Of a stretch of DNA of 64,000 bases, positions 5 to 60,729 are shown one piece after another. This stretch comes from Candidatus Latescibacterota bacterium. Its GTDB lineage: Bacteria > Latescibacterota > UBA2968 > GCA-2709665. The position numbers were made by a program, and so were the translations under genes. The notes below the pieces were generated by a model, which worked only from the letters and a program-made list of their open reading frames with translations, was not told the DNA's origin and searched no databases. The DNA lies in assembly GCA_965222075.1 (NCBI GenBank), contig OZ244937.1, positions 1,184,001 to 1,248,000 on the forward strand, given 5' to 3'. Within the stretch, counting starts at the first letter, position 1. Each line of letters starts with the position of its first letter.

Positions 5-619
5 GTGAAGGTGATGCTGAGCGCGGAGCACCTGCTGAACCTGATCAACGACGTGCTGGACCTGTCCAAGATTGAGGCGGGGAGGCTGGAGGTCAAGCCG
101 GAGCCGTTCGACGTGAAGCGCACGGTTGTCAACGCCTGTGCCACGGTAGGCCCCATGGTCAAGGACGGCGTGACGATGGACTACGAGGTTGCCGACCATA
201 TCGGAGAGGCGTACACGGATGAGTCGCGCCTGCGGCAGATCCTGATCAACCTGTTGAGCAACGCCGTCAAGTTTACGGACGCGGGCCAGGTGAGGGTGCG
301 CGCTTCACAGGACGGTGCGCCTGCCTGCGCGGCGCACCGCGCTGCAGGCAGGCCGGACGGGAATGCGTCGTTGGTGATCTCGGTGTCGGACACGGGGACC
401 GGCATCCCGGCGGATCAGCTCGAGGCGATCTTCCAGGAGTTCCGACAGGTGGATGGGTCCATCACGCGGAAGCACCATGGCACCGGGTTGGGACTGACTA
501 TTACGAAGCGGCTGGCGGAGCTGCTGGGCGGGACGATCCGTGTGGAGAGTGAGGTTGGTAGAGGGTCCACGTTTACGGTAAAGGTGCCGGTGGCGTACAG
601 GGGGAAGGAGGAAGGATAA
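5..619 (+). CDS. Sensor histidine kinase, C-terminal part (HisKA end + HATPase_c); 5' truncated by window edge
   Basis: LLNLINDVLDLSKIEAG, N box (QILINLLSNAVKFT), G1 (DTGTGI), F and G2 (GTGLGL) boxes. Contains a 33-nt palindrome insertion. Confidence 0.93.
   Translation: MKVMLSAEHLLNLINDVLDLSKIEAGRLEVKPEPFDVKRTVVNACATVGPMVKDGVTMDYEVADHIGEAYTDESRLRQILINLLSNAVKFTDAGQVRVRASQDGAPACAAHRAAGRPDGNASLVISVSDTGTGIPADQLEAIFQEFRQVDGSITRKHHGTGLGLTITKRLAELLGGTIRVESEVGRGSTFTVKVPVAYRGKEEG
320..352. repeat. CCTGCCTG-family palindromic element, copy 1 (33 nt, in frame in the kinase)
   Basis: CCTGCCTGC-GCGGCGCACCGCGCT-GCAGGCAGG. Removal restores QDGA|PDGN at a codon boundary. Confidence 0.85.
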
Positions 620-620
620 G

Positions 621-1805: not shown

Positions 1806-1900
1806 GGACCCTCTTGACGAGGTTGGGAGGGTTTACGGTAACAGAGGGGCTGAAATTGCAAACAAATCGCAAATTGAGGTCAACTTGAAGGGTATGTCCT

Positions 1901-5007: not shown

Positions 5008-5142
5008 GGTCATTGGAAATCCCCCAGCCTTTGAGATGCCGTCTGACAGATTGTTTGTTCGCGGTGGGGAAGCCGGTAAGGAATGGAGAAATGAAGAGAA
5101 AGGGTGAGGGCGTAGAAAATTTCTAATTGAAAGGCAGAAGCG

Positions 5143-30604: not shown

Positions 30605-30675
30605 AGATCGCCCTCCTCTCAGCGCACGGCCTGCGCTCATCCGGTTTTTTGTTGATCTTCAAAGGCGCGGGATCT

Positions 30676-33520: not shown

Positions 33521-33868
33521 CCGCTCGGCTCCTCATGGGAATGACAACGCCGGTCAAGTCTTTGGCCAATGTATGATACCGACGCAATTTTGTCAAGAAA
33601 AGATCGGATTTGCGGTGGAAGCGGGAATACTCGATGAGGATTTCTGTGAATTATCTTGATTTTAGCAAGAGGGTCGGACAAAATTTAGGGACTTATATAC
33701 TTGGTTGCGCACAGTGTTTTTATTGATTTAACCTTTTAATTTTGTTATAACTATGATAAGGACAGTAACAAAGACGGGGTATGTGAGCAAGGGGTGTCAC
33801 AGGAACCTAAGCGCTGTCCCTCGGGGTACCGTTCCGATTCACCACAGGTATCTGGAATTGGATAATCT

Positions 33869-36340: not shown

Positions 36341-36361
36341 TACATTTTAAAGCCCCAATTC

Positions 36362-36650
36362 GTGCGCTTGTTTGAAATACTTGGCCAAGCTTATAAGCAG
36401 CACAATACAGATGCCAAGTATCTCATCGACACCTTTCCAATCCCTGTTTGTGATAACATTCGTATTCGTCGTTGCAGGCTCTATCAAGGCGAAGCCTTTC
36501 GAGGCTACATCCCCAGTAAAAGACGCTACTTCTATGGCTTGAAAATTCACCTGCCTGCCGAGCAAGCCCGGCGCAGGCAGGCCTGATGGTGACCCAGTCT
36601 GGAGAGCCTGTCGAACTCTTTTTCACTCCAGGCAGTGTGGGAGATGTGGA
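36362..36650 (+). mobile_element. IS982-family transposase internal remnant, interrupted by a palindromic element
   Basis: IDTFPIPVCDNIRIRRC..GYIPSKRRYFYGLKIH; after removing 36550-36581 it continues LMVTQSGEPVELFFTPGS. No termini recognised. Confidence 0.8.
36550..36581. repeat. CCTGCCTG-family palindromic element, copy 3 (32 nt, frameshifting)
   Basis: CCTGCCT-GCCGAGC-AA-GCCCGGC-GC-AGGCAGG; exact excision restores KIHLMVTQ. Confidence 0.88.
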
Positions 36651-36724
36651 ATTGAAAGATAAGCAGAACGCGATTACCAACTCCGAATACAGCGACAATC
36701 GCTGGTAGAAAGAAAGACTGCCTG

Positions 36725-39700
36725 ATGCCACGCATTTTTGACAACATCGAACAATATCTCCTCCCGGCACTGGCGGAAACCATGGCGGTTTCCGACCATG
36801 CGGACTTTTGCGTGGGCTACTTCAACCTGCGCGGCTGGCGGTTAATCGATGAACATGTCGAAAGATGGAAGGGTGGGGAAGGACATTGCTGCCGTCTTCT
36901 CGTCGGTATGCAGCGGCTTCCCTACGAAGAGCTGCGTATCGCCAGAAGTCTATCGGCGAGTGAAAAAGGACTGGATAGCCAGACGGCGTCGCAGCTGAGG
37001 GTCAGGTTGGCGAAGGAATTTCGTGAGCAGTTGACAATCGGCGCGCCCACCAACGCGGATGAGGCCGGTCTGCGCAGGTTGTCCAGGCAGATCAAGGCAA
37101 AAAAGGTAGTCGTCAAGCTTTTCCTCCGGCATTCGCTTCACGCCAAGCTCTACCTGCTGTTCCGGCCGGACCCCATCAACCCGGCGGTCGGGTACCTGGG
37201 TAGCAGCAACCTCACGCAATCCGGTCTTTCCAAACAGGGCGAACTGAATATAGATGTGCTGGACCACGACACCTGCCAGAAACTCGCGCGATGGTTCGAA
37301 GATCGCTGGGCTGATCGCTGGTGCGTCGATATCTCGGACGAACTTGCGCAGATCATCGATGAAAGTTGGGCAGGGGAGCGGTTGATCCCGCCATATCACA
37401 TCTATGTGAAGATCGCTTACCACCTGTCGCAGGAAGCCCGGGCGGGTTTGACCGAATTTCGCATCCCGCAAGTGTTCGGCAACAAACTGCTCGATTTCCA
37501 GACGGCCGCCGTGAAGATTGCCGCGCATCATCTGAACAAGCGTGGCGGCGTTATTATCGGCGATGTCGTGGGACTCGGTAAGACGCTGATGGCCACGGCC
37601 ATCGCGCGCGTGTTCGAAGACGATCACGGGTTGGAAACGCTGATTATCTGTCCGAAAAATCTCGTTTCCATGTGGGAGGACTACCGCGAGCAGTATCAGT
37701 TGCGCGCGCGTGTGCTATCGATCAGCCGGGTGACCAGGGAACTCCCCGATATGCGCCGTTACCGCCTGATTGTGATTGACGAGAGTCACAATCTGAGAAA
37801 CCGTGAAGGAAAGCGTTACCGCGCGATCCAGGAATATATCAGGGAAAACGAGAGCAAGTGCATCCTGCTGTCGGCAACGCCGTACAACAAGACGTATCAG
37901 GACCTCTCCAGCCAGATCCGTTTGTTCGTGTACGAGGATGAAGACCTGGGCATTCGTCCCGAACGTCTGTTGCAGGAGATCGGCGAAACCGGGTTCATTC
38001 GCCGCCACCAGGCCTCTGTCCGGTCCCTGGCGGCATTCGAGCAGTCGGAATATGCCGACGACTGGCGTGAATTGATGCGTCTGTACCTCGTGCGCCGGAC
38101 CCGTAGCTTTATCCAGGAAAACTACGCCGCGACGGATCCGACGAACGGGCGGAAGTACCTGACGTTCGACGACGGCACCCGATCCTATTTTCCCGTTCGC
38201 GTTCCCAGGACGGTGCGATTCGATATTGACGAGCAATACGCGCGCCTGTTTGCCGACGATGTGGTGTCCGCCATCAACGGGCTGGAGCTCCCGCGCTACG
38301 GCCTCGGAAATTACGTCACGTCCTCGGGCGATGCGACGACAACGTCGACCGAAGACAAAAAAATCCTGGATGACCTGTCACGCGCCGGTAAGCGCCTCAT
38401 GGGCTTCTGTCGAACGAATCTGCTCAAGCGCCTTGAAAGCAGCGGGCATGTGTTCCTGCTATCGTTGGAGAGACATATTCTCCGGAACTTCATCTTTCTC
38501 CACGCCATCGAAAACGAACTGGCCCTGCCAATCGGCACGACGGACGCGGGGCTTCTGGACCCGCAATCCTTCGACGAAGATCCAGACGGCGCGGCCGGCG
38601 ACATTTTTGACGATGGAGACGAGGAAGGGACCACAGAAACCGAGGCGCCGGTGCGGCTGAGAACGGAAGAAGACTTCCGCAAGCGCGCCGCGGAAATCTA
38701 TGGGTCGTACGCCGTGCGATACAAGAGGCGATTCCGCTGGTTGGCCCCGCGTCATTTCGACAGGGCACTGCGGGATAACCTGTTGTCGGATGCGAGAACG
38801 CTGCGCAACATGCTGGACGGATTCGGCGAATGGGACCCGTCACACGACGCCAAGCTTGACGCGTTGCGCCAAATCCTCGTGGAGAAACATCCTGCTGAGA
38901 AGGTTCTGGTCTTCACGCAATTTGCGGACACAGTGACATACCTGGAACATCAGCTGAAGGCCGGCGGGATTGAACGGCTGGCTGCTGTTACCGGGGACTC
39001 CGCCGATCCAACGCGGCTGGCCTGGCAATTCAGTCCGAAAAGCAACGAGAAGGGTAGCCGTATCCGGCCTGAGGAGGAACTGCGGGTGCTGGTTGCTACG
39101 GATGTGTTGAGCGAGGGGCAAAACCTGCAGGATTGCGCCATCGTCGTGAACTATGACCTGCCGTGGGCCATTATTCGCCTGATTCAAAGAGCCGGACGCG
39201 TGGACCGCATCGGGCAGCACGCGCAAGACATCCTCTGTTATTCCTTTCTTCCTGCCGAAGGAATTGAACGGCTGATCCGGCTACGGGCGCGGGTACGGAC
39301 ACGTCTCAACGAAAACGCCGAGGTGGTCGGTACGGATGAGGCATTCTTTGAGGATGAAGATACCCGTGCCGTTGTTGATCTCTTTAACGAGAGCGCCGGA
39401 ATCCTCGACGGCGATGACGAGTCTGAGGTGGACCTTTCCTCCTACGCCTATCAGATCTGGAAAAATGCGACGACAGCCGATCCATCGCTTAAGAAGAAAG
39501 TCGAGGAGATGTCGGCCGTCGTCCATTCCTCCAAAGCCTACGAACAACAACAGGAGCGGCCCGAGGGCGTCCTGGTCTACATGCGCACAACGCAGGACAA
39601 TGACGCTCTGGTCTGGATGGACCGCGACGGTGGCAGCGTAACGGAAAGCCAGTTCGAGATTCTTCGCGTTGCCGAGTGCTCACCGGATACGCCGGCGCTA

Positions 39701-40081
39701 CCGCGGCACGAAAACCACCATGATCTTGTCCGAAAGGCCGCGGAACAGATCGCCCGGGAGGAAAAACATGTCGGCGGCCAACTGGGACGCCCATCCGGCG
39801 CGCGCTTCCGCACCTATGAACGGCTCAAGAACCACGCCGAGAGGGTCAAGGGCACTTTGTTCGATTCCGAACCTCTGCGGAAAACCATTGACGACATTTA
39901 CCGTTATCCACTTCGTCAGACGGCTGTGGATACGCTGAACCGTCAGTTGCGCAGCGGAATCTCCGACGACGATCTCGCCGGACGGGTCATCGAACTGCGG
40001 GAGGATGGCCGGCTTTGTATCGTCCACGAGGAGGATGAACCTCAGGAACCGCGAATCATCTGCTCAATGGGCTTGATTTGA
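36725..40081 (+). CDS. PLD-family nuclease fused to SNF2-like helicase (restriction-like subunit)
   Basis: [50 protein letters not shown]. Confidence 0.9.
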
Positions 40082-40089
40082 CGTCAGAC

Positions 40090-40127
40090 TTGACACTTTG
40101 CCTTACTTTATTATATTTTTAGTAAGG
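40090..40127 (+). promoter_or_regulatory. Sigma70-type promoter with overlapping inverted-repeat operator for the TA operon
   Basis: TTGACA (40090-40095), 16 nt, TATATT; inverted repeat CCTTACT (40101-40107) / AGTAAGG (40121-40127) brackets the -10. Confidence 0.7.
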
Positions 40128-40136
40128 AGATATGCC

Positions 40137-40379
40137 ATGATCGTCAAAATAACTTCAAAACGCCAGGTCACTTTTCCTGCACGGGTGCTGGACGCTCTGG
40201 GGGTTGGCCCGGGCGACCAACTCGAAATCGTAGAAGGGCCCGACGGGTTCGCCCTGCGGCCCAGACGCATTGATCATTCCCGTCTTGGGACGTTGCGCGA
40301 TAAGATCCGGCGCGGACGTGGGACGTTTGATCTCCAGGACTTCAGGGAGCAATCGTATGACCCGTCGCTTCGGGATTGA
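40137..40379 (+). CDS. AbrB/MazE/SpoVT-family antitoxin
   Basis: MIVKITSKRQVTFP..LGVGPGDQL; AAGGAG RBS; overlaps the PIN gene. Confidence 0.87.
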   Translation: MIVKITSKRQVTFPARVLDALGVGPGDQLEIVEGPDGFALRPRRIDHSRLGTLRDKIRRGRGTFDLQDFREQSYDPSLRD

Positions 40380-40755
40380 CACGTCAGTCCTCGTGCGGTT
40401 ACTCACCAGAGACCCGGAAAAAGATTTCGTGTATTGCGTAAGCAAACTTGGCGCGCTGGTCAACGAGCATGGCCACGAGATCTTCGTTTCAAACCAGGTC
40501 GTTGGAGAGACCTACGTTGCGGTACAGCACCACTATGGCGTATCAAAGGCCGATGCCCGCGCCTCTTTGCTCGACGCGCTGCGGAGCGGTCTGGTCTCCC
40601 CCCTGAACGGGCGCTCAGTTATCGAAGCCCTTAAGGCTTCCGGCGGCGCCGGCCTGTTTGACCGGCTCATCGCCGACGACTATTCACGCGCTGGCATGGA
40701 AGTCCTGACGCTGGATCAAAAGATGGCCGCCCTGCCCGACGTTCGTTACCTGTAG
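40357..40755 (+). CDS. vapC: PIN-domain toxin (VapC-like)
   Basis: IDTSVLVR, VVGE, FDRLI, TLD acidic PIN residues; start ATG 40357. Confidence 0.85.
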   Translation: MTRRFGIDTSVLVRLLTRDPEKDFVYCVSKLGALVNEHGHEIFVSNQVVGETYVAVQHHYGVSKADARASLLDALRSGLVSPLNGRSVIEALKASGGAGLFDRLIADDYSRAGMEVLTLDQKMAALPDVRYL

Positions 40756-40820
40756 AAAGAAACCCTTGCGGGCCAATCCCGCTCTGACGATATCATTGCC
40801 TGATTCAAGCCAGGACCAAC

Positions 40821-43800
40821 ATGATAATCCGGATGTTCCGAATGCCGACAATCCTCAACAGAAACAAAGTCAAAAAACATCTGGAGGAATTCAACCTCCG
40901 ACCTCTCTTTATCGAGGAATTTGGTTGGGACCATGGGGGCGTTGACACAGAGGTTAGCGTAGCCGAGCGTTCGTACGCCCTCGAAGTCATCGCCCAAAAG
41001 CGCGGCATGGTCGCCTACCAGTATGTCGCCGGCGCGGAGGCGACGTTTCCCGATCACCCCACCCGCCGGAAGATCGAGAGAGCCGTCGCGAAGGAGGTGC
41101 GTGAACACATCATCGTTTACGCCACCCACGACAGGACTGAGCAATCCTGGCAATGGGTAAAACGCGAACCCGGCCAGCCGGATCGGCAACGTTCGGAGTC
41201 CTACCGCCACGGGGATACCGGAGAACGGCTTATCCAGAAGCTGGAGTATCTCATCTTCACGCTGGACGAAGAAGAAGACCTGACCATCGTCGATGTATCG
41301 CGCTGGGTGCGGGCTGCCTTTGACGTAGAGAGGGTCACCAGGCGGTTCTACGACCGCTTCAAAAAGGGGCATCAGACCTTTCTGGGGTTCATCGAGGGGA
41401 TCGGGAACCTGGCCGACCGCGAATGGTACGCCTCGCTGATGTTGAACCGGATGATGTTCATCTATTTCATCCAGAAGCGTGGATTCCTCGACAACAATGT
41501 GGACTACCTGCGTGATCGTCTCGAAACGGTGCGGCAGCGGCAGGGAGAGGGCAGATTCATCAGTTTCTACCGCCTGTTCCTCCTGAAGCTGTTCCATGAG
41601 GGGTTGGGCCAGCCGGAGGCCGACCGCGCCCCTGAACTGGCGGAGTTGCTTGGCCAGGTGCCGTATCTCAACGGCGGCCTGTTCGACGTGCACGATCTGG
41701 AGCGGGACAATCCGGAGATCCACATTCCCGATGAAGCGTTCGAGCAGATCTTCGCCTTCTTCGATGCCTACCAGTGGCACCTCGACGACCGGCCGCTCCG
41801 CAACGACAACGAGATCAATCCCGACGTGCTCGGCTACATCTTCGAGAAGTACATCAACCAGAAGCAGATGGGGGCCTATTACACGAAGGAGGACATCACC
41901 GGGTACATCAGCCGCAACACCGTCATCCCCTTCCTGTTCGACTGGGCGAAGAAGGCCTGTCCCATCGCCTTCAGGCCCGGCGGCGGCGTGTGGCGGCTGT
42001 TACAGGACGATCCGGACCGCTATTTCTACGAGGCGGTCCGCCACGGCGTTACTGAGGACTTGGGCGACAAGCGCGAACTGCCGCCAGAGATAGCCGCAGG
42101 GCTGGATGACGTGTCCAAACGCGACGGCTGGAACAAACCGGCCCCGAGCGACTATGCCCTGCCGACGGAGACGTGGCGCGAGCACGTGGCCCGGCGCCAG
42201 CGCTACGAGGAAGTCCACGCCAAACTCGCCGCGGGGGAGGTCACGTCGATCAACGACCTCATCACGTACAACCTGGACATCGAGAAGTTCGCCCAGGACG
42301 TCATCGCCGGCAGCGAGGGGCCTGAACTCATCCGCGCCTTCTGGAAGGCGCTTACCGGGGTCTCGATTCTCGATCCCACCTGCGGCTCCGGCGCGTTCCT
42401 GTTCGCGGCGCTCAACATCCTGGAACCGATATACACCGCCTGCCTGGAGTCCATGCAGGGATTCCTCGACGATCTGGAGCGCTCGAAGTGTAAGCACCAC
42501 CCGGAGAAAATGCGTGACTTTCGCCAGGTGCTGAAGCGGGTCGAAGAGCACGCCAGCGAACGCTACTTCATTCTCAAGTCCATCATTATTGACAACCTAT
42601 ACGGTGTTGATATTATGGAAGAGGCCGTGGAGATCTGCAAACTCCGCCTGTTCCTGAAACTGGTCGCCCAGCTGGAGAGTTACGAGCAGATTGAGCCATT
42701 GCCCGACATTGATTTCAACGTCCGCGCCGGCAACACGCTCGTCGGCTTTACGACTCTTGAGGAAATACAGGATGCATTCGTCGTCACCCCGGATGACCAG
42801 CGCAGAATGCTCTATGCCGAAGACACGGCCAAGTTGAAACGTATCGAGGAGGATGCCAAGATCGCCGACCAAGCCTTCCGTATGTTCCGCAAGATGCAAA
42901 CCAAGCACGGCATGGACGCCGGCGCGTTTGCCGACACCAAGTTGGAATTGCGAAGACGGCTGGATGACCTGCGCGACGAATTGGACCGGTATCTGGCCGT
43001 GGAATACGGCGTCAAAGACAGCGACACAGCGGCCTATGAGCAATGGCGCGCCAGCCACCAGCCCTTCCACTGGTTCGTGGAGTTCTACGGAATCATGCAC
43101 AATGGCGGGTTTGACGTGATTATTGGTAATCCGCCGTATGTAGAGTACAAGAAGATAAAGAAAAACTACGAGGTCCACGGTTTCAAAACTCTGGCCTGCG
43201 GTGATTTATATGCATTTTGTACAGAGCGCGCTTTGGAGCTTCTTCTCTTGAAAGGTCACTTGGGATTGATTGTCCCAATATCGATATTCGGAACTGATGG
43301 CTTCAGCCCCTTGCAAGAGCTGTCGCTGAATATGCTCGATCCAGTGTGGATTTCATGCTTCGCAAATCGTCCATCCCAGCTGTTCGATGGAGCACAGAAA
43401 AGACTTACGATCTTATTGGGCCGACGGTGCGGTGGGCGTTCGCCCACGGTCTTCACTTCTACGTACCTGCGCTGGCGTCGAGAAGAGTTCACTGACCTCT
43501 TTAGTTCTCGGATTCGATACGCGTCTCCGCATCAAAACTTCTGTATATTTCCAGCGTCGCTTGAGAAACTCGGATCGCAACTTGAGGTCCGAGCCTTTAG
43601 TCGGTTGGCACAAAGGCGGAGGAAACTCGCCGAATCAGTCACACAATACAGTCGGTTTCGAGTCTTCTACACACGTAAATTTGGGTACTTCTTAGCGTTT
43701 CTTGATTTTGTTCCGGAGATAGTTGATGGCGAGACCGACTGCCGAGTGTCCCCGTCAGAACTGAAAGATCTCGGACTATCGTCGTCGGAATCAGTACAGG

Positions 43801-44150
43801 TGGTTGTCGCGGTTTTGAGCTCGTCAACTTTCTTCTGGTTTTGGAATGTTCTTTCTGATTGCCGCAACCTAAACAAACGGGATCTACTAGCTTTCCCATT
43901 TCACCCCGAAGGCCTTGCCTCGACGCTCAGGAGAAAAATGGCTGGTTTGGGGAAGCGCTACCTGCGTGAGCTTCGCACGACCTCGCGGACGATGCTGAAA
44001 AGCAGTCTGCGAATAGAGACCTTCGACTACGCGGCGTGCAAACCGATCGTTGACGAAATCGATCGGTTGCTAGCTGGTCACTACGGATTCACGGAGGAGG
44101 AGCTCGACTTCATCATCAATTACGACATCAAATATCGTATGGGGCTGTAG
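40821..44150 (+). CDS. Eco57I-like gamma-class N6-adenine DNA methyltransferase with C-terminal target-recognition domain
   Basis: PYLNGGLF, GAYYT, ILDPTCGSGAF (motif I), GVDI, FDVIIGNPPY (motif IV); no clear nuclease motif seen. Confidence 0.9.
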   Translation: MIIRMFRMPTILNRNKVKKHLEEFNLRPLFIEEFGWDHGGVDTEVSVAERSYALEVIAQKRGMVAYQYVAGAEATFPDHPTRRKIERAVAKEVREHIIVYATHDRTEQSWQWVKREPGQPDRQRSESYRHGDTGERLIQKLEYLIFTLDEEEDLTIVDVSRWVRAAFDVERVTRRFYDRFKKGHQTFLGFIEGIGNLADREWYASLMLNRMMFIYFIQKRGFLDNNVDYLRDRLETVRQRQGEGRFISFYRLFLLKLFHEGLGQPEADRAPELAELLGQVPYLNGGLFDVHDLERDNPEIHIPDEAFEQIFAFFDAYQWHLDDRPLRNDNEINPDVLGYIFEKYINQKQMGAYYTKEDITGYISRNTVIPFLFDWAKKACPIAFRPGGGVWRLLQDDPDRYFYEAVRHGVTEDLGDKRELPPEIAAGLDDVSKRDGWNKPAPSDYALPTETWREHVARRQRYEEVHAKLAAGEVTSINDLITYNLDIEKFAQDVIAGSEGPELIRAFWKALTGVSILDPTCGSGAFLFAALNILEPIYTACLESMQGFLDDLERSKCKHHPEKMRDFRQVLKRVEEHASERYFILKSIIIDNLYGVDIMEEAVEICKLRLFLKLVAQLESYEQIEPLPDIDFNVRAGNTLVGFTTLEEIQDAFVVTPDDQRRMLYAEDTAKLKRIEEDAKIADQAFRMFRKMQTKHGMDAGAFADTKLELRRRLDDLRDELDRYLAVEYGVKDSDTAAYEQWRASHQPFHWFVEFYGIMHNGGFDVIIGNPPYVEYKKIKKNYEVHGFKTLACGDLYAFCTERALELLLLKGHLGLIVPISIFGTDGFSPLQELSLNMLDPVWISCFANRPSQLFDGAQKRLTILLGRRCGGRSPTVFTSTYLRWRREEFTDLFSSRIRYASPHQNFCIFPASLEKLGSQLEVRAFSRLAQRRRKLAESVTQYSRFRVFYTRKFGYFLAFLDFVPEIVDGETDCRVSPSELKDLGLSSSESVQVVVAVLSSSTFFWFWNVLSDCRNLNKRDLLAFPFHPEGLASTLRRKMAGLGKRYLRELRTTSRTMLKSSLRIETFDYAACKPIVDEIDRLLAGHYGFTEEELDFIINYDIKYRMGL

Positions 44151-44155
44151 CCGGT

Positions 44156-44788
44156 ATGTTAATGCTTACAGCGGAACAACATCAGATCTTCAAATGGATC
44201 TACTGTAAACTCCAGTTGCCGGTTTATGCGGAAGCATACAAGGGTGCCGCGCATTCACTGCAAAATAGGTCTCCCGGATATATTACTTTCGTATCGCACG
44301 TGGCTAGAGATCTTATGAACGGCCTACCTCGAGCGGTCGCGGGTATTCGGTCATCTCAAGTTCAGTATCGTCAACATCTGGATAAACTTCAAAAGAAATG
44401 GAAAGATGAATGGCGCGGACAAGGGCTAGTCTCTCCCCAACAGGATGAGGGCCACATGATTCCTTACACCGTATGCGAGATGATTGCGGAACTGATAAGC
44501 GAACACAAGGAGGGACATCGTAGAAGTGAAGAGGCTGGTGATATTTTTTTTGATACCTTTCTTGGATATTCGGATAGAGATAGGATTACCAATTTGAGTA
44601 GATGGAGAGAAGCAAGAAGGTTTTTTTTGGCCAATACTCACCTTCGGGAGAAAGCCTTCTCAGCGGAAGTGTACACCAGAGTGGAAGAGAATTTCAGGAT
44701 ACTCGAGAAATTTCTACACATCGCGGCAACAAGTGAATATAGTCGAATAGGGAGTTTAGATGCAATCTTGGAAGAAGCCAACAAGTGA
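44156..44788 (+). CDS. Hypothetical helical protein with possible HEPN-like R-x6-H motif
   Basis: 210 aa ORF, lower GC; SHVARDLMNGLP and RFFLANTH; overlaps the next gene by 29 nt. Confidence 0.65.
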   Translation: MLMLTAEQHQIFKWIYCKLQLPVYAEAYKGAAHSLQNRSPGYITFVSHVARDLMNGLPRAVAGIRSSQVQYRQHLDKLQKKWKDEWRGQGLVSPQQDEGHMIPYTVCEMIAELISEHKEGHRRSEEAGDIFFDTFLGYSDRDRITNLSRWREARRFFLANTHLREKAFSAEVYTRVEENFRILEKFLHIAATSEYSRIGSLDAILEEANK

Positions 44789-47700
44789 AACGGTAGAGCG
44801 ATCTCTGGCGTTGATTGAGAAAGAAACTGACCGCCAATATTTCTTTTCTCGTCTGAGAAACCCTTGGTGGATTCAGCCGCTTGCCGAGCGTGGGTGTTTT
44901 AAGTCTCCTCCTGATATTAGGTATTTGCCAGATGGTTATGTCCAGCTTCCTTTCTGGCCGGAGCTTCAATATCTCAAGAATATATGCAAAAAAGATGCCC
45001 CAAAGGAAATCATCCAGGAGATTATTCAGATCGTGCTGCAACTTCCGGCAGTCGATAATCCAAGGGTCTATAATGATATTTTGGACATAGCATTGGAACT
45101 CGACGGTGAGCAATCCGCACGACTCAACCCCAAAATGCTTGAATACGCCAGGCTCGAACACCAATTCTTGCCTTTTCAGTATCCCGAACTGCTGGCTCAT
45201 TGGACGGCCCAGGACCAAACGGAAGCCGTATTGGAACTCGCGAATATACTTGTCCAATTCGACCCCGACCCCCAAGCAGAAGAAAAGCAGAAGCAACGAA
45301 AAGAGATCAATGATGACCAGACGGCCTCTGTCAAGGATCAGGTGGCCTCAATGAGGACCATACTCAGACCTGTCCCTCGATTCAACGAAAACTATCAGGA
45401 GATCTTGAATGAAGGCGTTCGCCCGCTGGCCGAGAAAGTGCCTTACAAGGTCGCCCGTATGTTGATGGATGCTACGGCGAGCATGATTCGTCTCGGAAAG
45501 CACGAAGACGACCTTGAAAGCGGTAAGAGCTCTGATTATTCCGAAATCTGGTGTCCGCGGCTCAATCAACAAAGCCGGGACTATCCAGACCCCCAGGAAA
45601 CCCTCGTCAATACGCTTACCTATGCCTGCGAGAAGGTTTATGAGAAATTGCCCGCGTCAATTGAAGCCCTGGACAGCGCTTTAAGGAACCAGCAGTGGGA
45701 TGTTTTCAGGCGTCTCCGGCAACACCTGTACGCTTTATACCCGGGCGAGCAAACTCGGCCGTGGATTCGGGAGTTGGTCCTGGTGTATGGTGACTATGCG
45801 AAATGGGAACACTACTATGAGTTTCAGCGGATGATACGAGTGGCTTGCGAGCATTTTGGCGCGGAGTTGCTCACGGAAGACGAGCGGGCCCAAATTTTCG
45901 ATGCGATCCTCAGCGGTCCTTCGAAGGAAGATTTTCGCGAAAAGATGGGTGAGCAATTCACGGAAGATGGTTTCGAGCAGAGGAGACGGGAGTTCCATCG
46001 CCAGCAACTCAGGCCGTTCACAACGGTGCTCTTTGGGGAGCATGCGGGCTACTTCCAGGAACTCGAAAACGATGAAACCGCAGACGAGGTCACGGATGAG
46101 AACTACTGGCCCGTCAAAGAATCTAAAGGGGGAAGGGTTACTTCTCGTAGCCCAAGATCACCCGAAGAACTCGCGAATCTCCCGGATGAGGAGCTACTTG
46201 CCTACATTAATGATTGGCAGGACGAACACTGGGACAGAGATGATGGGCACACACAGATCACCATTGAAGCGCTGTCCGGAGCGTTTCAGACGGTATTCAA
46301 GGATCCGATCATCACGGACGCCAGCAGACTCAGCTTTTGGATGAAGAATCGTGACAAAATCCTCCGGCCCACTTACGTACGGGCGATGATTGATGCAATG
46401 CAGGAGCACATAAAGGCAAAGAACTTCGATAAGCTCGACGAGTGGTTCCCATTTTGCGAATGGGTGCTTTCACATCCCGATTCGGAAAACGAGGAAGGCG
46501 TCGGAAGTGGGCTATTCGGAGATGAATCCCGCGAGTCTCCCAATTGGCATACCTCGCGGCGAGCGGTCTGTGACTTTATCGAAGCCTGCCTGCCTGCAGC
46601 GCAGTACGCTGCGCAGGCAGGTCTTAAACCGGATGTAGATGTGCCGCTTTTATTTCGTGGACAACTGGGCAGGCTTCTGGAGATGCTCTGCACACAATAT
46701 GATTGGCATCTGGATCAAGACAATTCGACCCTGTTGAACCGCGACGATCAACTGGCCGAGGCCATTAACACGACGCGGGGCCGCGCGCTGGAGAATCTGG
46801 TCAATTTCGGACTATGGGTACGCAGGCATGATGACAGAGCGGAAGTTCACGAAATGAAGGCGATCCTCGAAAAAAGGTTCAGTTCGGAAGCGGAGTATCC
46901 GCTGACGCTTCCGGAGCACGCTATCCTGGGCATGTGGTACAGGCAGATTTTCGATCTTGATGAGAAGTGGGCTATTGCCCGAAAATCGGTTTTCTTTCCC
47001 CAAAACAATATGCGTGCATGGCGGGAGGCGTTTGGAAACTTTCTTCGCCGGAGCCGCCCCGACAAACCGATTTTTAATGAATTTCGCGATGACTTCGAGT
47101 TTGCTCTGGAACATCTGGATTGTTTGAGACAACAAAAGCAGTCTGGGCCAAAGTCGACCGATATCCTCGGTCAGCACCTGTTCAAATACTATGTGTGGGA
47201 AGTATATCCATTGAAAGGCGCCGGTAGCTTGCTGGAGGACTTTTACAAGGCAACCGGCGGCGAACGGGCGCATTGGGCGACGTTATTTGCCTATGTCGGA
47301 CGTTCATTGGAAAATACCGGCAAACGGCTTGACGAAGGCTTGAAGGACAGGATCGTTGCCTTCTTCGAGTGGCGGTTAGAAGTCGGGGAACCGGCGGAAC
47401 TTCGAGAGTTCGCCTCATGGCTGAAAGCTGAGTGCATGGATGCCGAATGGCGGTTGAAAGCCTTGTTGGAGGTTTTGGAAATAGGTGAAACTCTGGATGA
47501 AACCGGGACTCTTGAGGTGGGTTGGTGGGACCACCCGAGGACATGGCTCCCTCACGAGGTTACGCGGTCAATGCCAGCACTGCTCCCGATGCATACTCCT
47601 CGGGCGGTCGAATGCTTTGCCAAGCTGATCGATTCCATGCCCAAAAGTGGCGAGGTCCACATCCCAACCGACGATGCAAAAGCCATCTTGAAAGCCGGTT

Positions 47701-47789
47701 TCGAGCACGACGACGAAAGCGTCCGCAAGAACGCCAAGCACGCCCAGGACAACCTGCTCAAAAGGGGTTACTTTAGCGTCATGGACTGA
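44760..47789 (+). CDS. Large alpha-helical hypothetical protein (1009 aa), candidate defence scaffold/sensor
   Basis: Long ORF with GGAG RBS; YFFSRLRNPWWIQPL, AINTTRGRALE; no catalytic motif recognised. Confidence 0.75.
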   Translation: MQSWKKPTSETVERSLALIEKETDRQYFFSRLRNPWWIQPLAERGCFKSPPDIRYLPDGYVQLPFWPELQYLKNICKKDAPKEIIQEIIQIVLQLPAVDNPRVYNDILDIALELDGEQSARLNPKMLEYARLEHQFLPFQYPELLAHWTAQDQTEAVLELANILVQFDPDPQAEEKQKQRKEINDDQTASVKDQVASMRTILRPVPRFNENYQEILNEGVRPLAEKVPYKVARMLMDATASMIRLGKHEDDLESGKSSDYSEIWCPRLNQQSRDYPDPQETLVNTLTYACEKVYEKLPASIEALDSALRNQQWDVFRRLRQHLYALYPGEQTRPWIRELVLVYGDYAKWEHYYEFQRMIRVACEHFGAELLTEDERAQIFDAILSGPSKEDFREKMGEQFTEDGFEQRRREFHRQQLRPFTTVLFGEHAGYFQELENDETADEVTDENYWPVKESKGGRVTSRSPRSPEELANLPDEELLAYINDWQDEHWDRDDGHTQITIEALSGAFQTVFKDPIITDASRLSFWMKNRDKILRPTYVRAMIDAMQEHIKAKNFDKLDEWFPFCEWVLSHPDSENEEGVGSGLFGDESRESPNWHTSRRAVCDFIEACLPAAQYAAQAGLKPDVDVPLLFRGQLGRLLEMLCTQYDWHLDQDNSTLLNRDDQLAEAINTTRGRALENLVNFGLWVRRHDDRAEVHEMKAILEKRFSSEAEYPLTLPEHAILGMWYRQIFDLDEKWAIARKSVFFPQNNMRAWREAFGNFLRRSRPDKPIFNEFRDDFEFALEHLDCLRQQKQSGPKSTDILGQHLFKYYVWEVYPLKGAGSLLEDFYKATGGERAHWATLFAYVGRSLENTGKRLDEGLKDRIVAFFEWRLEVGEPAELREFASWLKAECMDAEWRLKALLEVLEIGETLDETGTLEVGWWDHPRTWLPHEVTRSMPALLPMHTPRAVECFAKLIDSMPKSGEVHIPTDDAKAILKAGFEHDDESVRKNAKHAQDNLLKRGYFSVMD
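46589..46621. repeat. CCTGCCTG-family palindromic element, copy 4 (33 nt, in frame)
   Basis: CCTGCCT-GCA-GCGCAG-TACG-CTGCGC-AGGCAGG; removal gives EACLKPD. 30/33 identical to the reverse complement of copy 1. Confidence 0.88.
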
Positions 47790-47842
47790 GCAATCTGAGC
47801 CGGGATGTGGGGTGACGGTACGCTAACGAAGAAGAGATAAAT

Positions 47843-48187
47843 ATGGAAATGACCGACGCCAACCTTGACGACATTGTTTCGTGTCTTCTGACTGTTGATC
47901 CCTACAGGATTGTACTTTTTGGATCGCTTGCAGCGGAGACGGGGAGCTCGGAAAGTGATATCGATTTGCTGGTCATCCTGGACTCTGAGGCTATCTCGCA
48001 GACCTATGAGGAAAGGATGAAAAGAAGGCTAACAGTGAGGAACAGTATCCGAGAGATCAACAGGCAGATCCCCATCGACCTTGTTGTCTACACCAAAGCC
48101 GAGTACGAGCTTCTTCAGAAGCAGGGCGCTTCGTTTCTTAACGGCATAGAAAGTTCAGGGAAGACGTTGTATGAGAAGGCAAGCTAA
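47843..48187 (+). CDS. Minimal nucleotidyltransferase (MNT antitoxin-like)
   Basis: VLFGSLA..SDIDLLVI..IDLVVY. Confidence 0.85.
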   Translation: MEMTDANLDDIVSCLLTVDPYRIVLFGSLAAETGSSESDIDLLVILDSEAISQTYEERMKRRLTVRNSIREINRQIPIDLVVYTKAEYELLQKQGASFLNGIESSGKTLYEKAS

Positions 48188-50353: not shown

Positions 50354-52003
50354 TTGGACAGGCCGCTGACCTGCGCAACCGTGATTGCGCAGACCCTGAA
50401 ATCATCCGGAGTTCGTTATGTTTTCGGCCACCCGGGCGGCGAGGTGGTGGACCTGATCGAGGCGCTGGAGACGCACGGCATCCGGTTCGTGCTGACCGGA
50501 CACGAGTCGGCGGCCGCGTTTATGGCGAGCACGGCCGGGCGGATGACGGGGATACCGGGCGTGTGTCTGGCGACGCTTGGACCGGGGGCGTGTAACCTGG
50601 TACTGGGTGTGGGTTGCGCGTACCTTGACAGGGACCCCATGCTGGCCATTTCCGCCCGGACGGTTGATTCGCGCATTCGGATGAGCGACAAGCAGAACCT
50701 GCGGCTCAACGAGATTTTTGCGCCCATCAGCAAGTGGTCGGCCGCCTTAGACGGCGCAGACACGGGAGGGACGGTCCGGTCCGCATTGTCGGTTGCCGCG
50801 ACTCCGCCGTGCGGGCCGGTCTACCTGACGCTGCCGAACGACGTTGCCGTGGCGCTTGATCGGCCTGCGGCGGCCGGACCCTCGCCGCCTGGCGGACCGG
50901 CTTGGGACGACCTGCCTGCGCCGAGGGTCTCTGCTCGGCAGGCAGGTGGGGTGTTTGAGGAGATCGTACAGGCGTTGAACAACGCGAAGCGGCCCATCGG
51001 TGTGGTTGGCATTGCGCTGGATGCGGAGAAAGACGTCCGGGCCGTCCGCGGTTTCTTCGAGCAGACCGGGATTCCTTACGTGTCGCTGCCACAGGCCAAG
51101 GGGATTGCCAACGAAGCGGGCGGGGGGTATCTGGGCACGGTCGCGTCGGCGGCCGGGGATGCGGTTCTTGTCGAAGCGCTGGAGCAGAGCGATTGTCTGC
51201 TGGGCGTCGGGTTCGATCCCGTGGAATCGGCTCAGGACTGGCATTTCCACCGTCCGGTCTACTCGCTGGCCAATACGTCCATCCGATTTGGGGACTACCG
51301 GCCCGCTGCGGAGTGCGTGGGCGACGTGAGCGCGTTGTTGCAGCGATTGGGGAAGGCATACCGGGGAGGTTCGGAGTGGACACAGGCAGAAGCGGGGGAG
51401 GTGCGAGAGCGGGTTGAGGCTGAGATGCGGCCACCCGATGCGTCGGGACCTGCGGGGGTATCGCCCTACCACCTGATGCAGGCGCTTGCGGCGGCGCTGC
51501 CGGAGGAGACCATTGTTTCAACCGACGTGGGGGCGCACAAGATGCTGCTCTCGCAGGTCTGGAAGGCACGGTATGCCCGCTCCTTTCTGGTTTCCAACGG
51601 TCTCTCGGCGATGGGCTACGGCGTGCCTGCGGCGCTTGCGGCGGCGCTGCTGCGGCCGGAGCGACCTGTGGTGGGGGTGCTCGGCGATGCCGGGTTTGCG
51701 ATGATGGCGCAGGAGCTGGAGACCGCCCGACGGATGGAGGTTTCACCGTTGCTGGTTGTGCTGTGCGATCGATCTCTGGCGATCATCAAGGTCGCTCAGG
51801 ATATGCGTGAGATTCCCTATCGGGGCGTGGATTTCGGGCCGGTGGACTGGGGAAGGGTGGCCGAGGGGTTCGGTGCAAAAGGGGTGGGGGCGACGACACC
51901 GGGTGAGGTGAACAAAGCCGTGCAGGACTGGCTGGGACATCCCAGGCTCACGGTGCTGGCCGTAGAGGTGGATGAGGCGCTCTATGCAGGTCTGACGTAC
52001 TGA
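50354..52003 (+). CDS. Thiamine pyrophosphate-binding enzyme (acetolactate synthase-like)
   Basis: VFGHPG, HESAAAFMA, TLGPGACN, TDVGAH, SAMGYGVP, GDAGF. Confidence 0.9.
   Translation: MDRPLTCATVIAQTLKSSGVRYVFGHPGGEVVDLIEALETHGIRFVLTGHESAAAFMASTAGRMTGIPGVCLATLGPGACNLVLGVGCAYLDRDPMLAISARTVDSRIRMSDKQNLRLNEIFAPISKWSAALDGADTGGTVRSALSVAATPPCGPVYLTLPNDVAVALDRPAAAGPSPPGGPAWDDLPAPRVSARQAGGVFEEIVQALNNAKRPIGVVGIALDAEKDVRAVRGFFEQTGIPYVSLPQAKGIANEAGGGYLGTVASAAGDAVLVEALEQSDCLLGVGFDPVESAQDWHFHRPVYSLANTSIRFGDYRPAAECVGDVSALLQRLGKAYRGGSEWTQAEAGEVRERVEAEMRPPDASGPAGVSPYHLMQALAAALPEETIVSTDVGAHKMLLSQVWKARYARSFLVSNGLSAMGYGVPAALAAALLRPERPVVGVLGDAGFAMMAQELETARRMEVSPLLVVLCDRSLAIIKVAQDMREIPYRGVDFGPVDWGRVAEGFGAKGVGATTPGEVNKAVQDWLGHPRLTVLAVEVDEALYAGLTY
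50911..50946. repeat. CCTGCCTG-family palindromic element, copy 5 (36 nt, in frame)
   Basis: CCTGCCT-GC-GCCGAG-GGTCTCTG-CTCGGC-AGGCAGG in the interdomain linker; removal gives WDDGVFEE. Confidence 0.85.
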
Positions 52004-56413: not shown

Positions 56414-56497
56414 TGGGCTTTGCCCGACAAGCTGAGGACATTAACTTTCAGTAATCGTTGCAACATATTCTACAACAATAAATTAAAGGGGTCAAGA

Positions 56498-57571: not shown

Positions 57572-57621
57572 AAGCCTTTAAATCCGCATTCCCAAGCTCC
57601 TTAAAAAAATCCTTACCTTAT

Positions 57622-60600
57622 ATGTCCCTTCCTGAATTCTCTACTCGATATCCGGTTACCATTGCGATGGCCACCCTGGCGGTTGTGCTGCTGGGGTGGA
57701 TTTCGCTGGAGCGGCTGGGGGTGGACCTGCTGCCGGATCTGCAGACGCCGGTGGTGACGGTAGACCTGCGGGCGCCGGGGAAGTCGCCGCGCGAGATGGA
57801 GGAGCGGTATGCCCGCCGCCTGGAGGGGGATATCAGCACGGTGCGCAAAGTCAAGCGGGTGCATTCTGTCTCGAGGGCCGGGCAGGCGGTGGTGGTGGCG
57901 GAGTTTTCCTGGGATGCGGATATGGACTTCGCCCTGTTGGACGTGCAGAAGAAGGTGGGGCGCTATGCTGCGGACACGGAGGTGACCACGCTGGACGTCA
58001 CGCGGGAAGACCCCCAGGCCCTCCCGGTGATGCGGGTGGCGGTCACCTCGGGGGAAAGGGTGGATCTGGATGCGCTGGTGGGGACGGTGGAGACGGTGGT
58101 CAAGCCCAGGCTGGAGGGGCTGGATGGGGTGGCTTCAGCAGAGATCGAGGGCGGGGCGGAGAAGGAGGTCCGGATTATCCTGGATGCTTATTTGCTGGAG
58201 GCCTACGGACTGACGCCGCAGACGATTGTGAACCGCGTGCAGTCGGCCAATGCGGATGTCTCGGGCGGCACCCTCAAAGACGGCCAGCGCGCCTACCTGG
58301 TCAAAGGGATGGGGCGGCTGGTGGATATAGAGAGCATCCGAAACCTGGTGGTGGGTGAGCGGCGGGGGATGGATGCCAGCGGCCAGCCGGACCCCGGTGC
58401 GCCAAGGGTGCCGGTGAGCGTGGGCGATGTGGGGCGGGTGGACCTCCGGTTTGAGGAGCGGGAGACGATGGTGCGGCTAAACGGCCCCGAGTGCGTGGGG
58501 CTGGCCGTTTACCGGGAGGCCGGTGCGAATACGGTATCCGTGGTGAGGTCCGTGTTCGAGATGCTGAGGGAACTGGAGCGTGACCTGCCTGATACCCGAT
58601 TTATTGTGGTGGAAAACCAGGCCCGGTTCGTGGAGCAGGCCGTGGGAGAGGTAGAAGCGTCGGCAATCTACGGCGCCCTGCTGGCCGTGGGGGTGCTCCT
58701 GCTGGCCCTGCGCAACTGGACGGCGACGCTGGTGATCGGCCTGGCCATTCCGATTTCCGTGCTGGCCACGTTCACGCTGATGTATTTTCAGGGGCTGACC
58801 TTAAACGTGATGACGCTTGGGGGGCTGGCCCTGGGCGCTGGCATGCTGGTGGACAACGCGATTGTGGTGATCGAAAATATCTACCGCCACCTGGAACTGG
58901 GCGAGGATGCGCGCACCGCGTCCGCCCGGGGCGCCGGGGAGGTGGGGGTGGCTATTCTGGCGTCCACGATGACCACGGTGTCTGTGTTTTTGCCCATTGT
59001 CTACCTGCACGGGCTGGCCGGCGAGCTCTTCAAGGAACAGGCCTGGACCGTGGCGTTCTCGCTCATCTCCTCGCTGGGCGTGGCCATGGCCACAGTGCCC
59101 ATGCTCACCTCCCGCGTGCTGCGCCGGGCGCCGGTGGGTGGGGCGGGCATCCGGTCTGAACGGTTCCAGGGTTTCCTGGAACGCGCCTTGAACCGGAAGG
59201 TCATCGTTGTGCTGGTGACCCTGGGGGCGCTGGGGACCGCGGCCTACCTGAGCCGGTCGATTCACACCGAGTTTATCCCCCGGGAAGACCAGGGGATTTT
59301 TCAGGTGGACCTGGCGCTGCCGGAGGGCACCCGGCTGGAGGCGACAGACCGGGTTGCGCTGCGGGCTGCGGCGATTGTCGAGGAGGTCTGCGATCCCGAT
59401 GCGGAGCATATCTACCTGAGGGTCGGCGTCGATCCGGCCAGGCTCACCAGCGCCGGGCAACCGACCGGCCCCAACAGGGCCACGATCTCGGTTGTCCTGG
59501 CCCAGGGTGCACAGCGGCGCACGGCTGCAGAGCTGGTGGCCATACTGGATACGCCCCTGCGCGAGATTCCTGAGCTTAAGGTGAACTACCAGCTTCATGA
59601 TACTGCACTGGAAGGGGTTATGGGAGGCAGCGAAGCGCCTGTCCAGGTGGAGGTCACCGGGGAGAATCTGGACCTGCTCCGGGATCTGACGGCGGATTTG
59701 AAGGCCCGGATCGAAGCCCTGCCGGCGGTTTACAACGTGAGGACGAGCTTTCAGGACGGACAGCCGGAGATTGACCTGGTCCTGCGCGACGATGTTGCAG
59801 CGGCGTTCGGGCTTACGGCCCAGTCAATTGTCCAGGATCTGGAGCGGAGGCTTTCTGGTGAAGTGGCCGGCGAACTGTCCAAGGACCAGCGGGAGCGGAC
59901 CATCCGGGTGGGGTTTGAGGATGTGGACCTGCGTGAATTGGAGGGCATCCGGGTTGACGGCGTAGACGGGGCCCTGCTCACGCTGGGGGATATTGCAAAG
60001 CTGCAGATCGTGGAGGGCCCCAGGGAGATTCTCAGAAATGGACAGCGCCGGGTGGGGCATATTACCGGCTACCTGGCCGAAGGCGCGGTTTTAAGCGAGG
60101 CCATCGATCAGATCGGCCTGGTGATCCGGAATACGGCGCTTCCCTACGGGTATCGGGTGGCCATTGGGGGGGAAGAGCGGGAGCGGGCCGAGTCGTTCGG
60201 CAGCCTGAAGTTTGCTCTGCTGCTGTCCGTGGTGCTGGTTTACATGGTGATGGCCTCGCTCTTTGAGTCCCTGCTGCACCCCTTTACGGTGATGTTCACA
60301 GTGCCCTTAGCGGGCATCGGGGTGGTCCTGGCGTTCTGGGGGCTGGAAGAGCCCTTCAGCGTGATGGCCTATATCGGCATGATTATGCTGGGCGGCATTG
60401 CGGTGAACGATGCCATTATCCTGGTGGACCGGATCAACCAGCTGCGGCAGGGGGGCGGAGCGCTCCGGGTGGCGGTTCTGCAGGCCACACAGGACCGGCT
60501 GCGTCCCATCCTGATGACCAGCATGACCACCATTCTGGCCCTGATGCCGATGGCTTTCGGGGTGGGAGAAGGGGCCCGGCTGCGGGCGCCGATGGCGATT

Positions 60601-60729
60601 GCAGTGATCGGAGGGCTGGTGACTTCCACCCTGATGACCCTGATCGTGATCCCGGTGGTCTATGAGACGATCGACCGCCTGCGCCTGCCTGTGCGTCGCA
60701 CGCAGACAGGCAGGAGGCCATCCGGATGA
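57622..60729 (+). CDS. RND permease subunit 1 (AcrB/MdtB-like)
   Basis: GMLVDNAIVVIENI, AILASTMTT..VFLP, RLRPILMT, PMAIAVIGGL. Confidence 0.95.
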   Translation: MSLPEFSTRYPVTIAMATLAVVLLGWISLERLGVDLLPDLQTPVVTVDLRAPGKSPREMEERYARRLEGDISTVRKVKRVHSVSRAGQAVVVAEFSWDADMDFALLDVQKKVGRYAADTEVTTLDVTREDPQALPVMRVAVTSGERVDLDALVGTVETVVKPRLEGLDGVASAEIEGGAEKEVRIILDAYLLEAYGLTPQTIVNRVQSANADVSGGTLKDGQRAYLVKGMGRLVDIESIRNLVVGERRGMDASGQPDPGAPRVPVSVGDVGRVDLRFEERETMVRLNGPECVGLAVYREAGANTVSVVRSVFEMLRELERDLPDTRFIVVENQARFVEQAVGEVEASAIYGALLAVGVLLLALRNWTATLVIGLAIPISVLATFTLMYFQGLTLNVMTLGGLALGAGMLVDNAIVVIENIYRHLELGEDARTASARGAGEVGVAILASTMTTVSVFLPIVYLHGLAGELFKEQAWTVAFSLISSLGVAMATVPMLTSRVLRRAPVGGAGIRSERFQGFLERALNRKVIVVLVTLGALGTAAYLSRSIHTEFIPREDQGIFQVDLALPEGTRLEATDRVALRAAAIVEEVCDPDAEHIYLRVGVDPARLTSAGQPTGPNRATISVVLAQGAQRRTAAELVAILDTPLREIPELKVNYQLHDTALEGVMGGSEAPVQVEVTGENLDLLRDLTADLKARIEALPAVYNVRTSFQDGQPEIDLVLRDDVAAAFGLTAQSIVQDLERRLSGEVAGELSKDQRERTIRVGFEDVDLRELEGIRVDGVDGALLTLGDIAKLQIVEGPREILRNGQRRVGHITGYLAEGAVLSEAIDQIGLVIRNTALPYGYRVAIGGEERERAESFGSLKFALLLSVVLVYMVMASLFESLLHPFTVMFTVPLAGIGVVLAFWGLEEPFSVMAYIGMIMLGGIAVNDAIILVDRINQLRQGGGALRVAVLQATQDRLRPILMTSMTTILALMPMAFGVGEGARLRAPMAIAVIGGLVTSTLMTLIVIPVVYETIDRLRLPVRRTQTGRRPSG
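60684..60714. repeat. CCTGCCTG-family palindromic element, copy 6 (31 nt, last codons of RND permease 1)
   Basis: CCTGCCTG-TGCGT-CGC-ACGCA-GA-CAGGCAGG; encodes LPVRRTQTGR just before the stop. Confidence 0.8.

Follow-up and report, generated by a model that had tools for sequence, protein, structure and literature searches.

A stretch of 64,000 nt from the genome of a Candidatus Latescibacterota bacterium (the window; C1:1184001-1248000 of G000, a single-contig genome of 5.36 Mb and 59.3% GC) carries the same tiny bulged hairpin in several unrelated genes, which raises the question of what these hairpins are and how they came to be there. The original prediction, made from the window alone, was that they are mobile and insert short peptides into proteins. 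A search of the window with the outer arms of the hairpin, CCTGCCTG-N(8-30)-CAGGCAGG, returned six matches, each of them exactly where a copy had been predicted, and a nested seventh start at 46585. The expectation for this pattern was 0, because none of 100 dinucleotide-preserving shuffles of the window contained a match, and the 8-mer arms occurred 20 times compared to an expected 2.96. The comparisons described below indicate that the hairpins very likely belong to one family of tiny mobile palindromes, selfish and non-autonomous, that resemble repetitive extragenic palindromes (REPs) in size and shape. Insertion has occurred recently and still continues, as judged between species and between strains.

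The unit is 27 to 36 nt long and consists of an outer stem of 8 to 9 bp with the ends CCTG...CAGG, a one-sided bulge of 2 to 3 nt, and a variable inner hairpin. Folding of the window copies as single-stranded DNA agreed with this architecture, which is the one first described, and gave minimum free energies of −10.3 to −18.4 kcal/mol (z, −1.9 to −4.8). Throughout the genome there were 139 exact, non-nested copies and no matches with the reversed-arm controls. Seventy-nine of the exact copies were 33 nt long, and the length of 108 was a multiple of three. When one mismatch per arm was allowed, 403 matches were obtained, versus 47 with reversed arms; the 403 had length peaks at 27 nt (91), 33 nt (94), 30 nt (29), and 36 nt (18). 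A relaxed set with at least 7 of 8 arm positions paired comprised 260 copies, still including some chance palindromes, and the total number of copies, including those with variant arms, is roughly 260 to 350. The inner hairpin distinguishes several sub-families, CCTGTCTG is one of the arms in a large sub-family of 27-nt units, and the stem pairs covary between C-G, A-T, and T-A, as compensatory changes. The flanks of 151 copies in the relaxed set were unique and those of the other 109 were like the flanks of other copies; 189 of the 260 were singlets, with no other copy within 400 nt.

Empty sites were found for four host genes in the window. The 36-nt copy at 50911 to 50946 encodes LPAPRVSARQAG in a thiamine pyrophosphate (TPP) enzyme, where it falls within the linker that joins the N-terminal domain to the central one. 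In the ortholog from the sister species G001, which is 94% identical, exactly these 36 nt are missing and CGA is joined directly to TGG, with no duplication. The peptide was found in none of 10 informative ortholog rows (13 rows were aligned, three of them in the wrong frame). The same copy varies among strains: a contig from sequencing run X9 (∼99% identical) joins 50908 to 50945 without it, and contigs from runs X3 and X4 run through it. High depth and deletions of 2 plus 1 bases at 50926 to 50929 were considered as a variant of this locus and rejected, since other copies of the family collapse onto the TPP copy.

The 33-nt copy at 320 to 352 is in the HATPase_c domain (Pfam) of a 1,096-aa histidine kinase encoded on the + strand, where it is read in the frame P-A-C...A-G-R. 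It has no counterpart in the G001 ortholog, its ends are exact to the base, and the target lies between GCG and CCG. The kinase homologues of G004, an outgroup with a complete 8.1-Mb genome, also lack the 11 residues, and the site is a loop before the DTGxG box. There were 51 matches to the C-terminal domain of this kinase in G004. The 36-nt copy at 29811 to 29846 lies within the final 16 codons of a − strand gene (29798 to 30640) for a PhyH-family dioxygenase. It is missing from the orthologs in G001 and G004, and was placed just 5′ of the ancestral stop, so that the tail of the protein was lengthened. The copy at 60684 to 60714 is a 27-nt family member (60684 to 60710) followed by CAGG, in the final codons of the gene for an AcrB-type RND transporter, and the stop codon of this gene overlaps the start of the next one. 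At this site a net 27 nt are missing in L033 (95% identical) and L055 (87%). The insertion is thus 27 nt rather than the 31 nt first assigned to it, and the other predicted coordinates hold. Contigs from X3 and X9 that start at 60655 are 27 letters shorter than the reference, which would fit a missing RND tail copy, but they were not counted as evidence for its absence. Aligning host proteins to orthologs, a check proposed with the original prediction, therefore revealed empty sites for the TPP enzyme, the PhyH tail, the RND tail, and the kinase, and the proposal that excision restores the frame and leaves no target duplication was borne out by the four copies of the window for which a comparison was possible (320, 29811, 50911, and 60684).

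A bulk comparison covered ∼0.98 Mb of G001, about a quarter of that genome, and both flanks were found for 17 of the 151 copies with unique flanks. Of these, 15 were copies of the family, and the other two were chance palindromes, conserved between the two genomes. Twelve of the 15 were absent from G001 with exact ends (9 simple insertions and 3 composites), 1 was shared, and 2 were complex. When the kinase copy is included, 13 of 16 family copies compared were missing in the sister species, with base-exact ends and no target duplication. The three composite insertions were 52, 58, and 63 nt long, and the longest was a 30-mer nested in a 33-mer. In the reverse comparison, one G001 copy was absent from G000 and two were shared. 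No target-site duplication was detected at any of the 10 simple G000 empty sites or at the G001-specific site, and the empty sites match single units. Two copy-dense regions (490 to 510 kb and 2815 to 2835 kb) were rejected as a source of empty sites because they consist of accessory DNA, little of which is matched in G001 or G004. Contigs from an RNA run, X19, cover parts of the window, and none of them bridges a window copy.

The distribution of the family among relatives, which are Candidatus Latescibacterota metagenome-assembled genomes, is patchy. Copy number ranged from 0 to 164 in the 22 genomes of the same taxonomic family (G000 included), and at least seven copies were present in only 13 of 168 genomes of the phylum, namely 12 of the 22 in this family and 1 of 31 in the next. 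There were 0 copies in the outgroup G004, which points to gain rather than loss. Identical 33-mers were present in different genera. The commonest 33-mer gave no matches in a JGI metagenome scan, and among the papers listed for Latescibacterota and palindromic repeats none, judged by title and abstract, was about a repeat family. The precise empty sites without target duplication, this patchy distribution, and the presence of copies in a recently acquired island (see below) all agree with the proposal of a non-autonomous mobile hairpin.

Genes were called with a crude codon-usage caller without annotation, which yielded 4,038 genes covering 85.7% of the genome, and every figure for copies in genes rests on these calls. 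Fifty-two of the 139 exact copies were in genes, 1 was at a gene edge, and 86 were in spacers; the corresponding numbers for the 151 unique-flank copies were 73, 1, and 77. Genes are thus under-hit (48% of unique-flank copies versus 86% coding), yet about half of the independent copies are in genes. The initial description of all copies as lying in coding sequence was incorrect for the copy at 36550 to 36581, which is intergenic, and in the whole genome about half of the independent copies are intergenic. The length of 44 of the 52 exact in-gene copies was a multiple of three, and the other 8 were at gene ends or were composites. The 13 relaxed copies classified as in genes with other lengths were chance palindromes with degenerate arms, shortened readings of 36-mers, or located in the last tenth of the gene. 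The genuine internal copies are therefore all in frame. They are 27, 30, 33, or 36 nt long and free of stop codons, lie in loops, linkers, or tails, and add 9 to 12 residues. The L-P-A...Q-A-G frame, which had been predicted to give peptides of 11 to 12 residues, was the commonest (34 of 60 in-frame copies), but the range of lengths is wider than predicted and the other two frames were used by 13 copies each. The proportion of copies with lengths divisible by three, which it had been suggested should be tabulated inside and outside coding sequence, was similar for copies in genes (60 of 73) and for those in spacers (55 of 77; Fisher P = 0.13), and 33 nt is the usual length outside genes as well. 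The three-base step in length is a property of the whole family and not a filter that acts only inside genes.

The bases at the insertion points showed a preference. Junctions were purine-pyrimidine in 94 of 133 copies, compared to 23.6% of the steps in the genome, with 35 between A and T and 36 between G and C. The flank profiles revealed a purine at position −1 and a pyrimidine at +1 only, and no GTAG or CGTC tag. Because the empty sites already hold both flanking bases, the purine-pyrimidine step reflects a preference for certain targets and does not belong to the unit. As a result of the preference for A-T or G-C steps, the flanks often extend the stem. Insertions were found in either orientation in genes, spacers, other repeats, and each other. 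There was no orientation bias with respect to the replication strand, scored from the side of the bulge and GC-skew strands (56 versus 63), or with respect to the sense strand of genes (24 versus 26).

Several known systems share features with this family. REPs of 20 to 40 bp have been reported inside genes of Opitutus terrae, Rickettsia conorii (RPE-4/6), Thauera, and others (Di Nocera et al. 2013, PMC3733652). REPs are 20- to 40-nt imperfect palindromes with high copy numbers, compensatory sub-families, and a patchy occurrence among species, and some members lie inside genes where they add residues in loops or at termini (PMC3733652), all of which applies to the Latescibacterota family as well. 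The same article describes CGTC-tagged REPs without a known transposase (PMC3733652). The family studied here differs from REPs in that it carries no GTAG or CGTC tag, about half of its independent copies are intragenic, and its lengths step by three; it is also not concentrated after genes or between convergent genes, and no gene for a REP-associated tyrosine transposase (RAYT) flanked by copies was found in G000. Inverted REP doublets, or REPINs, are ∼70 to 110 nt long, and singlets are considered their decayed remnants, according to Bertels and Rainey (2011, PMC3116915). Like the present family, REPINs are short palindromes, thought there to move as folded single strands by means of a domesticated IS200-like tyrosine transposase acting in trans (PMC3116915), and RAYT-like genes co-occur with the element here. 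In contrast to REPINs, 189 of 260 copies here are singlets, and single units appear and disappear at empty sites.

[quoted passage not shown] They are likewise palindromic selfish DNA inserted in frame in unrelated genes, with a peptide compatible with the protein fold (PMC10969869). The family described here is distinguished from RPEs by units of 27 to 36 nt, peptides of 9 to 12 residues, and a 5.4-Mb Latescibacterota genome; its sequence is apparently unrelated. Classical MITEs differ in that no target-site duplication accompanies insertion here. Small mobile imperfect palindromes of 21 to 27 nt, which nest and also occur in genes, were reportedly described by Elhai et al. in heterocyst-forming cyanobacteria in 2008, and no enzyme is known to move those small dispersed repeats; the phylum and the sequence are different. 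Palindrome-associated elements derived from IS200/IS605 insert hairpin-bearing DNA base-exactly and without duplication, but they do so 3′ of a fixed word of 4 to 5 nt, have two different ends, and exhibit a replication-strand bias, whereas here the target is just a purine-pyrimidine step and neither strand is favored. REPs inside genes and the RPEs of Rickettsia were already known, and what is added here is the three-base step in length and the symmetric purine-pyrimidine target.

Movement of such a unit would require an enzyme that is supplied in trans and recognizes the folded single strand. Our best guess, which is a tentative one, is that a RAYT-like HUH tyrosine transposase is the leading candidate. 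RAYT-like genes were found in all 12 genomes of the family with at least seven copies versus 3 of 10 with fewer (Fisher P = 0.0007, a value that overstates the association because the genomes are kin). Two control families were compared between copy-rich and copy-poor genomes in the same way, IS110 (5 of 12 versus 3 of 10) and PF01797 (9 of 12 versus 6 of 10). A second RAYT-like type of 217 aa, present in G001 (C240, C286, and C47), G018, G003, G014, G015, and G013, is 75 to 91% identical across genera whose TPP-enzyme orthologs are only ∼65% identical and often occurs as broken fragments, which suggests horizontal spread and decay of this gene. A copy of the hairpin was close on one side at 3 of 12 second-type loci. 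Neighbors of RAYT-like genes included a copy 9 nt 3′ of the gene in G021, one ∼150 nt upstream of the open frame in G003, and two by a broken gene in G001.

The sole RAYT-like gene of G000 (255 aa; C1:3242104-3242871) scored 55.6 bits against the NCBIfam model 'REP-associated tyrosine transposase', which is under the cutoff of 80. Several observations weigh against the involvement of a RAYT. The locus of this gene (C1:3241490-3242990; L261 886-2380) is bounded by two direct repeats of 155 nt (97% identical) in which GTAG-tagged palindromes with a different sequence are found; G000 has only 7 of these, and the locus looks like a classic REPtron of those palindromes. No copy of CCTGCCTG was found within 1.5 kb of this gene or of four orthologs, the G001 type of RAYT-like gene was not found in G000, G024 has 13 copies and no RAYT-like match, the units carry no GTAG or CGTC tag, and neither orientation bias described above was detected. 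A nuclease or transposase gene flanked by clustered copies, which the original prediction proposed to look for, was not found among the RAYT genes and copy clusters examined: no RAYT was flanked on both sides, and clusters of copies were discarded as pointers to a transposase because their neighbors are duplicated response regulator and dockerin-like genes.

It is about as plausible that the units are mobile and are moved by an agent other than a HUH or RAYT enzyme, such as a recombinase or nuclease that has escaped recognition and makes blunt cuts at short self-complementary steps, or host repair by which free hairpin oligonucleotides are captured. Consistent with such an agent are the symmetric A-T or G-C target without duplication, the equal frequency of both orientations, the lack of a GTAG or CGTC tag or of a REPtron built from these copies, and the 13 copies in G024, which has no RAYT-like match; the REP study, moreover, states that CGTC-tagged REPs have no dedicated transposase (PMC3733652). 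On the other hand, no candidate gene for such an agent was found, and the element is followed more closely by RAYT-like genes than by either control family. IS110 was rejected as the mobilizer on the grounds that G000 has no match to PF01548. IS200-type TnpA was also rejected, as the two genes in G000, one of them intact and the other broken, are not close to copies, and there was no correlation across genomes: G004 has 32 such genes and 0 copies, and PFAM Y1_Tnp counts do not track the element.

Explanations that do not involve mobility fare considerably worse. If the copies were immobile and had multiplied only by duplication of larger repeats or segments that carry them, the shared flanks of 109 of the 260 copies, the ∼45 copies of a ∼300-nt repeat, and a duplicated response regulator segment with copies would be accounted for. 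This is most improbable given the 151 unique flanks, the 13 empty sites that are exact to the ends of the unit, and the occurrence of the ∼300-nt repeat both with and without the unit. It is very unlikely that the hairpin is a signal useful to the host and maintained by selection, such as a terminator, an mRNA stabilizer, or a protein-binding site, a kind of role suggested for many REPs. The stable hairpin is preserved by compensatory changes, and contigs from the RNA library hold family copies from other loci, but the copies in spacers follow the share of each spacer type (53 unidirectional, 19 divergent, and 5 convergent) and are not near gene 3′ ends (median, 148 nt). Furthermore, no T run was found beside the copies, many copies are inside genes, and close relatives have none.

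Short GC-rich inserts are bypassed during translation in a yeast mitochondrion, and the gene-internal copies might similarly be removed from RNA or skipped by the ribosome so that no peptide is added. This is highly improbable, because removal or bypass would not require the genuine internal copies to be in frame and stop-free, as all of them are, and the avoidance of conserved cores and the preference for one frame (34, 13, and 13) are as expected if the copies are translated. The idea that the motif arose by chance or from codon usage, or is a conserved peptide, can be set aside almost entirely. The shuffles and reversed-arm controls yielded no matches, so that the motif is not at chance frequency; copies are read in each of the three frames, lie on either strand, and also occur in spacers; and orthologs lack the copies and the peptides.

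A family of mobile palindromes is thus the reading that we prefer, and the following considerations weigh against it. No transposition event or intermediate was seen, and the differences in presence and absence could in principle include precise deletions. The 109 copies in larger repeats mean that part of the copy number is hitchhiking. The fraction of copies in genes is approximate because the gene calls are crude, and the long 'intergenic' gaps (median, 636 nt) may hide genes. The share of lengths divisible by three is alike in genes and spacers, and we therefore infer adaptation to coding sequence from the family-wide length pattern.

If the palindromes are mobile, their persistence might be explained as follows. 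Members with lengths that are multiples of three and no stop codon in any frame would allow the family to survive in a genome that is 86% coding. An insertion in a loop, linker, or tail would add only 9 to 12 small residues, and insertions that are out of frame or disruptive would be purged. It is possible, although somewhat doubtful, that the hairpin lineage has been shaped by life in genes, with steps of 27, 30, 33, and 36 nt, freedom from stops in all six frames, and blunt insertion between A and T or G and C, free of duplication, tag, and strand bias, by a new chemistry. The chemistry of transposition would then match none of those of REP/RAYT, IS200/IS605, IS110, or classical MITEs.

Two of the six window copies are located in an island of lower GC content (51 to 57%) at 33530 to 48000 on the + strand, which contains a MacB/FtsX permease, a SNF2+PLD helicase, and large proteins of unidentified family. 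The genes that flank the island are 4.6 kb apart in G001 compared to 17 kb here. The 32-nt copy at 36550 to 36581 lies between the stop of the FtsX/MacB-type gene (36340) and the start of the SNF2/PLD helicase gene (36725). Neither G001 nor G004 has a counterpart of the island at the corresponding position, which leaves no empty site for comparison with this copy. The 33-nt copy at 46589 to 46621, which is preceded by an extra CCTG (46585 to 46621), encodes LPAAQYAAQAG in a 1,009-aa island protein without a Pfam match. The same 11 residues are present in 5 of its 20 closest database homologues and missing in 15. No close homologue with the insertion was found among 41 relatives, which have only homologues of at most 66% identity without it. 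The helicase is a SNF2 domain fused to a PLD nuclease domain, as in restriction or defense systems, and the island also encodes proteins of ∼1,000 to 1,100 aa, one of which belongs to a very large family (964 database matches at E ≤ 0.001) whose members have varying added domains (PF10049, PF18165, and PF16289). The island is probably a defense island.

A minimal copy that had been proposed at 1785 to 1800 is not a member of the family. The segment (1784 to 1800) is ordinary sequence that has the same length in G001, with a few substitutions and no insertion or deletion. In the first 28,000 nt of the window, all called genes are on the + strand and GC skew is very strong (0.13 to 0.25 per 4 kb). 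The extremes of cumulative GC skew in G000 are near 4.21 Mb and 1.34 Mb.

Other repeats were encountered in these genomes. The ∼300-nt repeat mentioned above, of which one of the ∼45 copies is at G000:C1:4342450-4342760, includes, besides other paired segments, a perfect hairpin of 13 bp (GGCCTTTTTCTTG...CAAGAAAAAGGCC). It exists with and without a 33-mer at one fixed site, and in one copy a 27-mer is nested in the 33-mer. Another repeat of ∼380 nt, with more than 40 copies in G004, matches G000 at 497.9 kb and 2830.8 kb. A duplicated segment (G000:C1:498904-500409 and 2829124-2830653) contains a response regulator gene and a dockerin-like gene; a 30-nt hairpin is located in the first codons (or the 5′ leader) of one of the two segments only, and a 33-mer is near the 3′ end in both. 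Beside another copy, at G000:C1:554273-554382, three tandem repeats of CAGGCAGGTCGG lie in the N-terminal region of a dockerin-like protein, and this locus in G001 holds a copy of a different, composite kind.

Short-read contigs from three runs end or start at 60655 to 60711 and near other copies, and the hairpins therefore break de Bruijn assemblies. The labels of the runs include 'sponge metagenome' (X19, with 25 aligned contigs, 5 of them at least 99% identical), which hints at a sponge-associated host.

In practical terms, the copies break short-read assemblies, the insertions and deletions of 9 to 12 residues mimic divergence between orthologs, and the variable copies can serve as strain markers for these symbionts. 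With gains dated at the species and strain levels, exact empty sites, and a defined target, two questions about REP-like sequences become testable: how untagged palindromes move, and whether single units, rather than doublets, transpose. The family is a clean and data-rich case of selfish DNA that is small enough to be tolerated inside proteins, in a phylum without cultured members. If the lineage has indeed been shaped by life in genes, it would be a standing source of loop insertions of 9 to 12 residues across the proteome of one Latescibacterota family.

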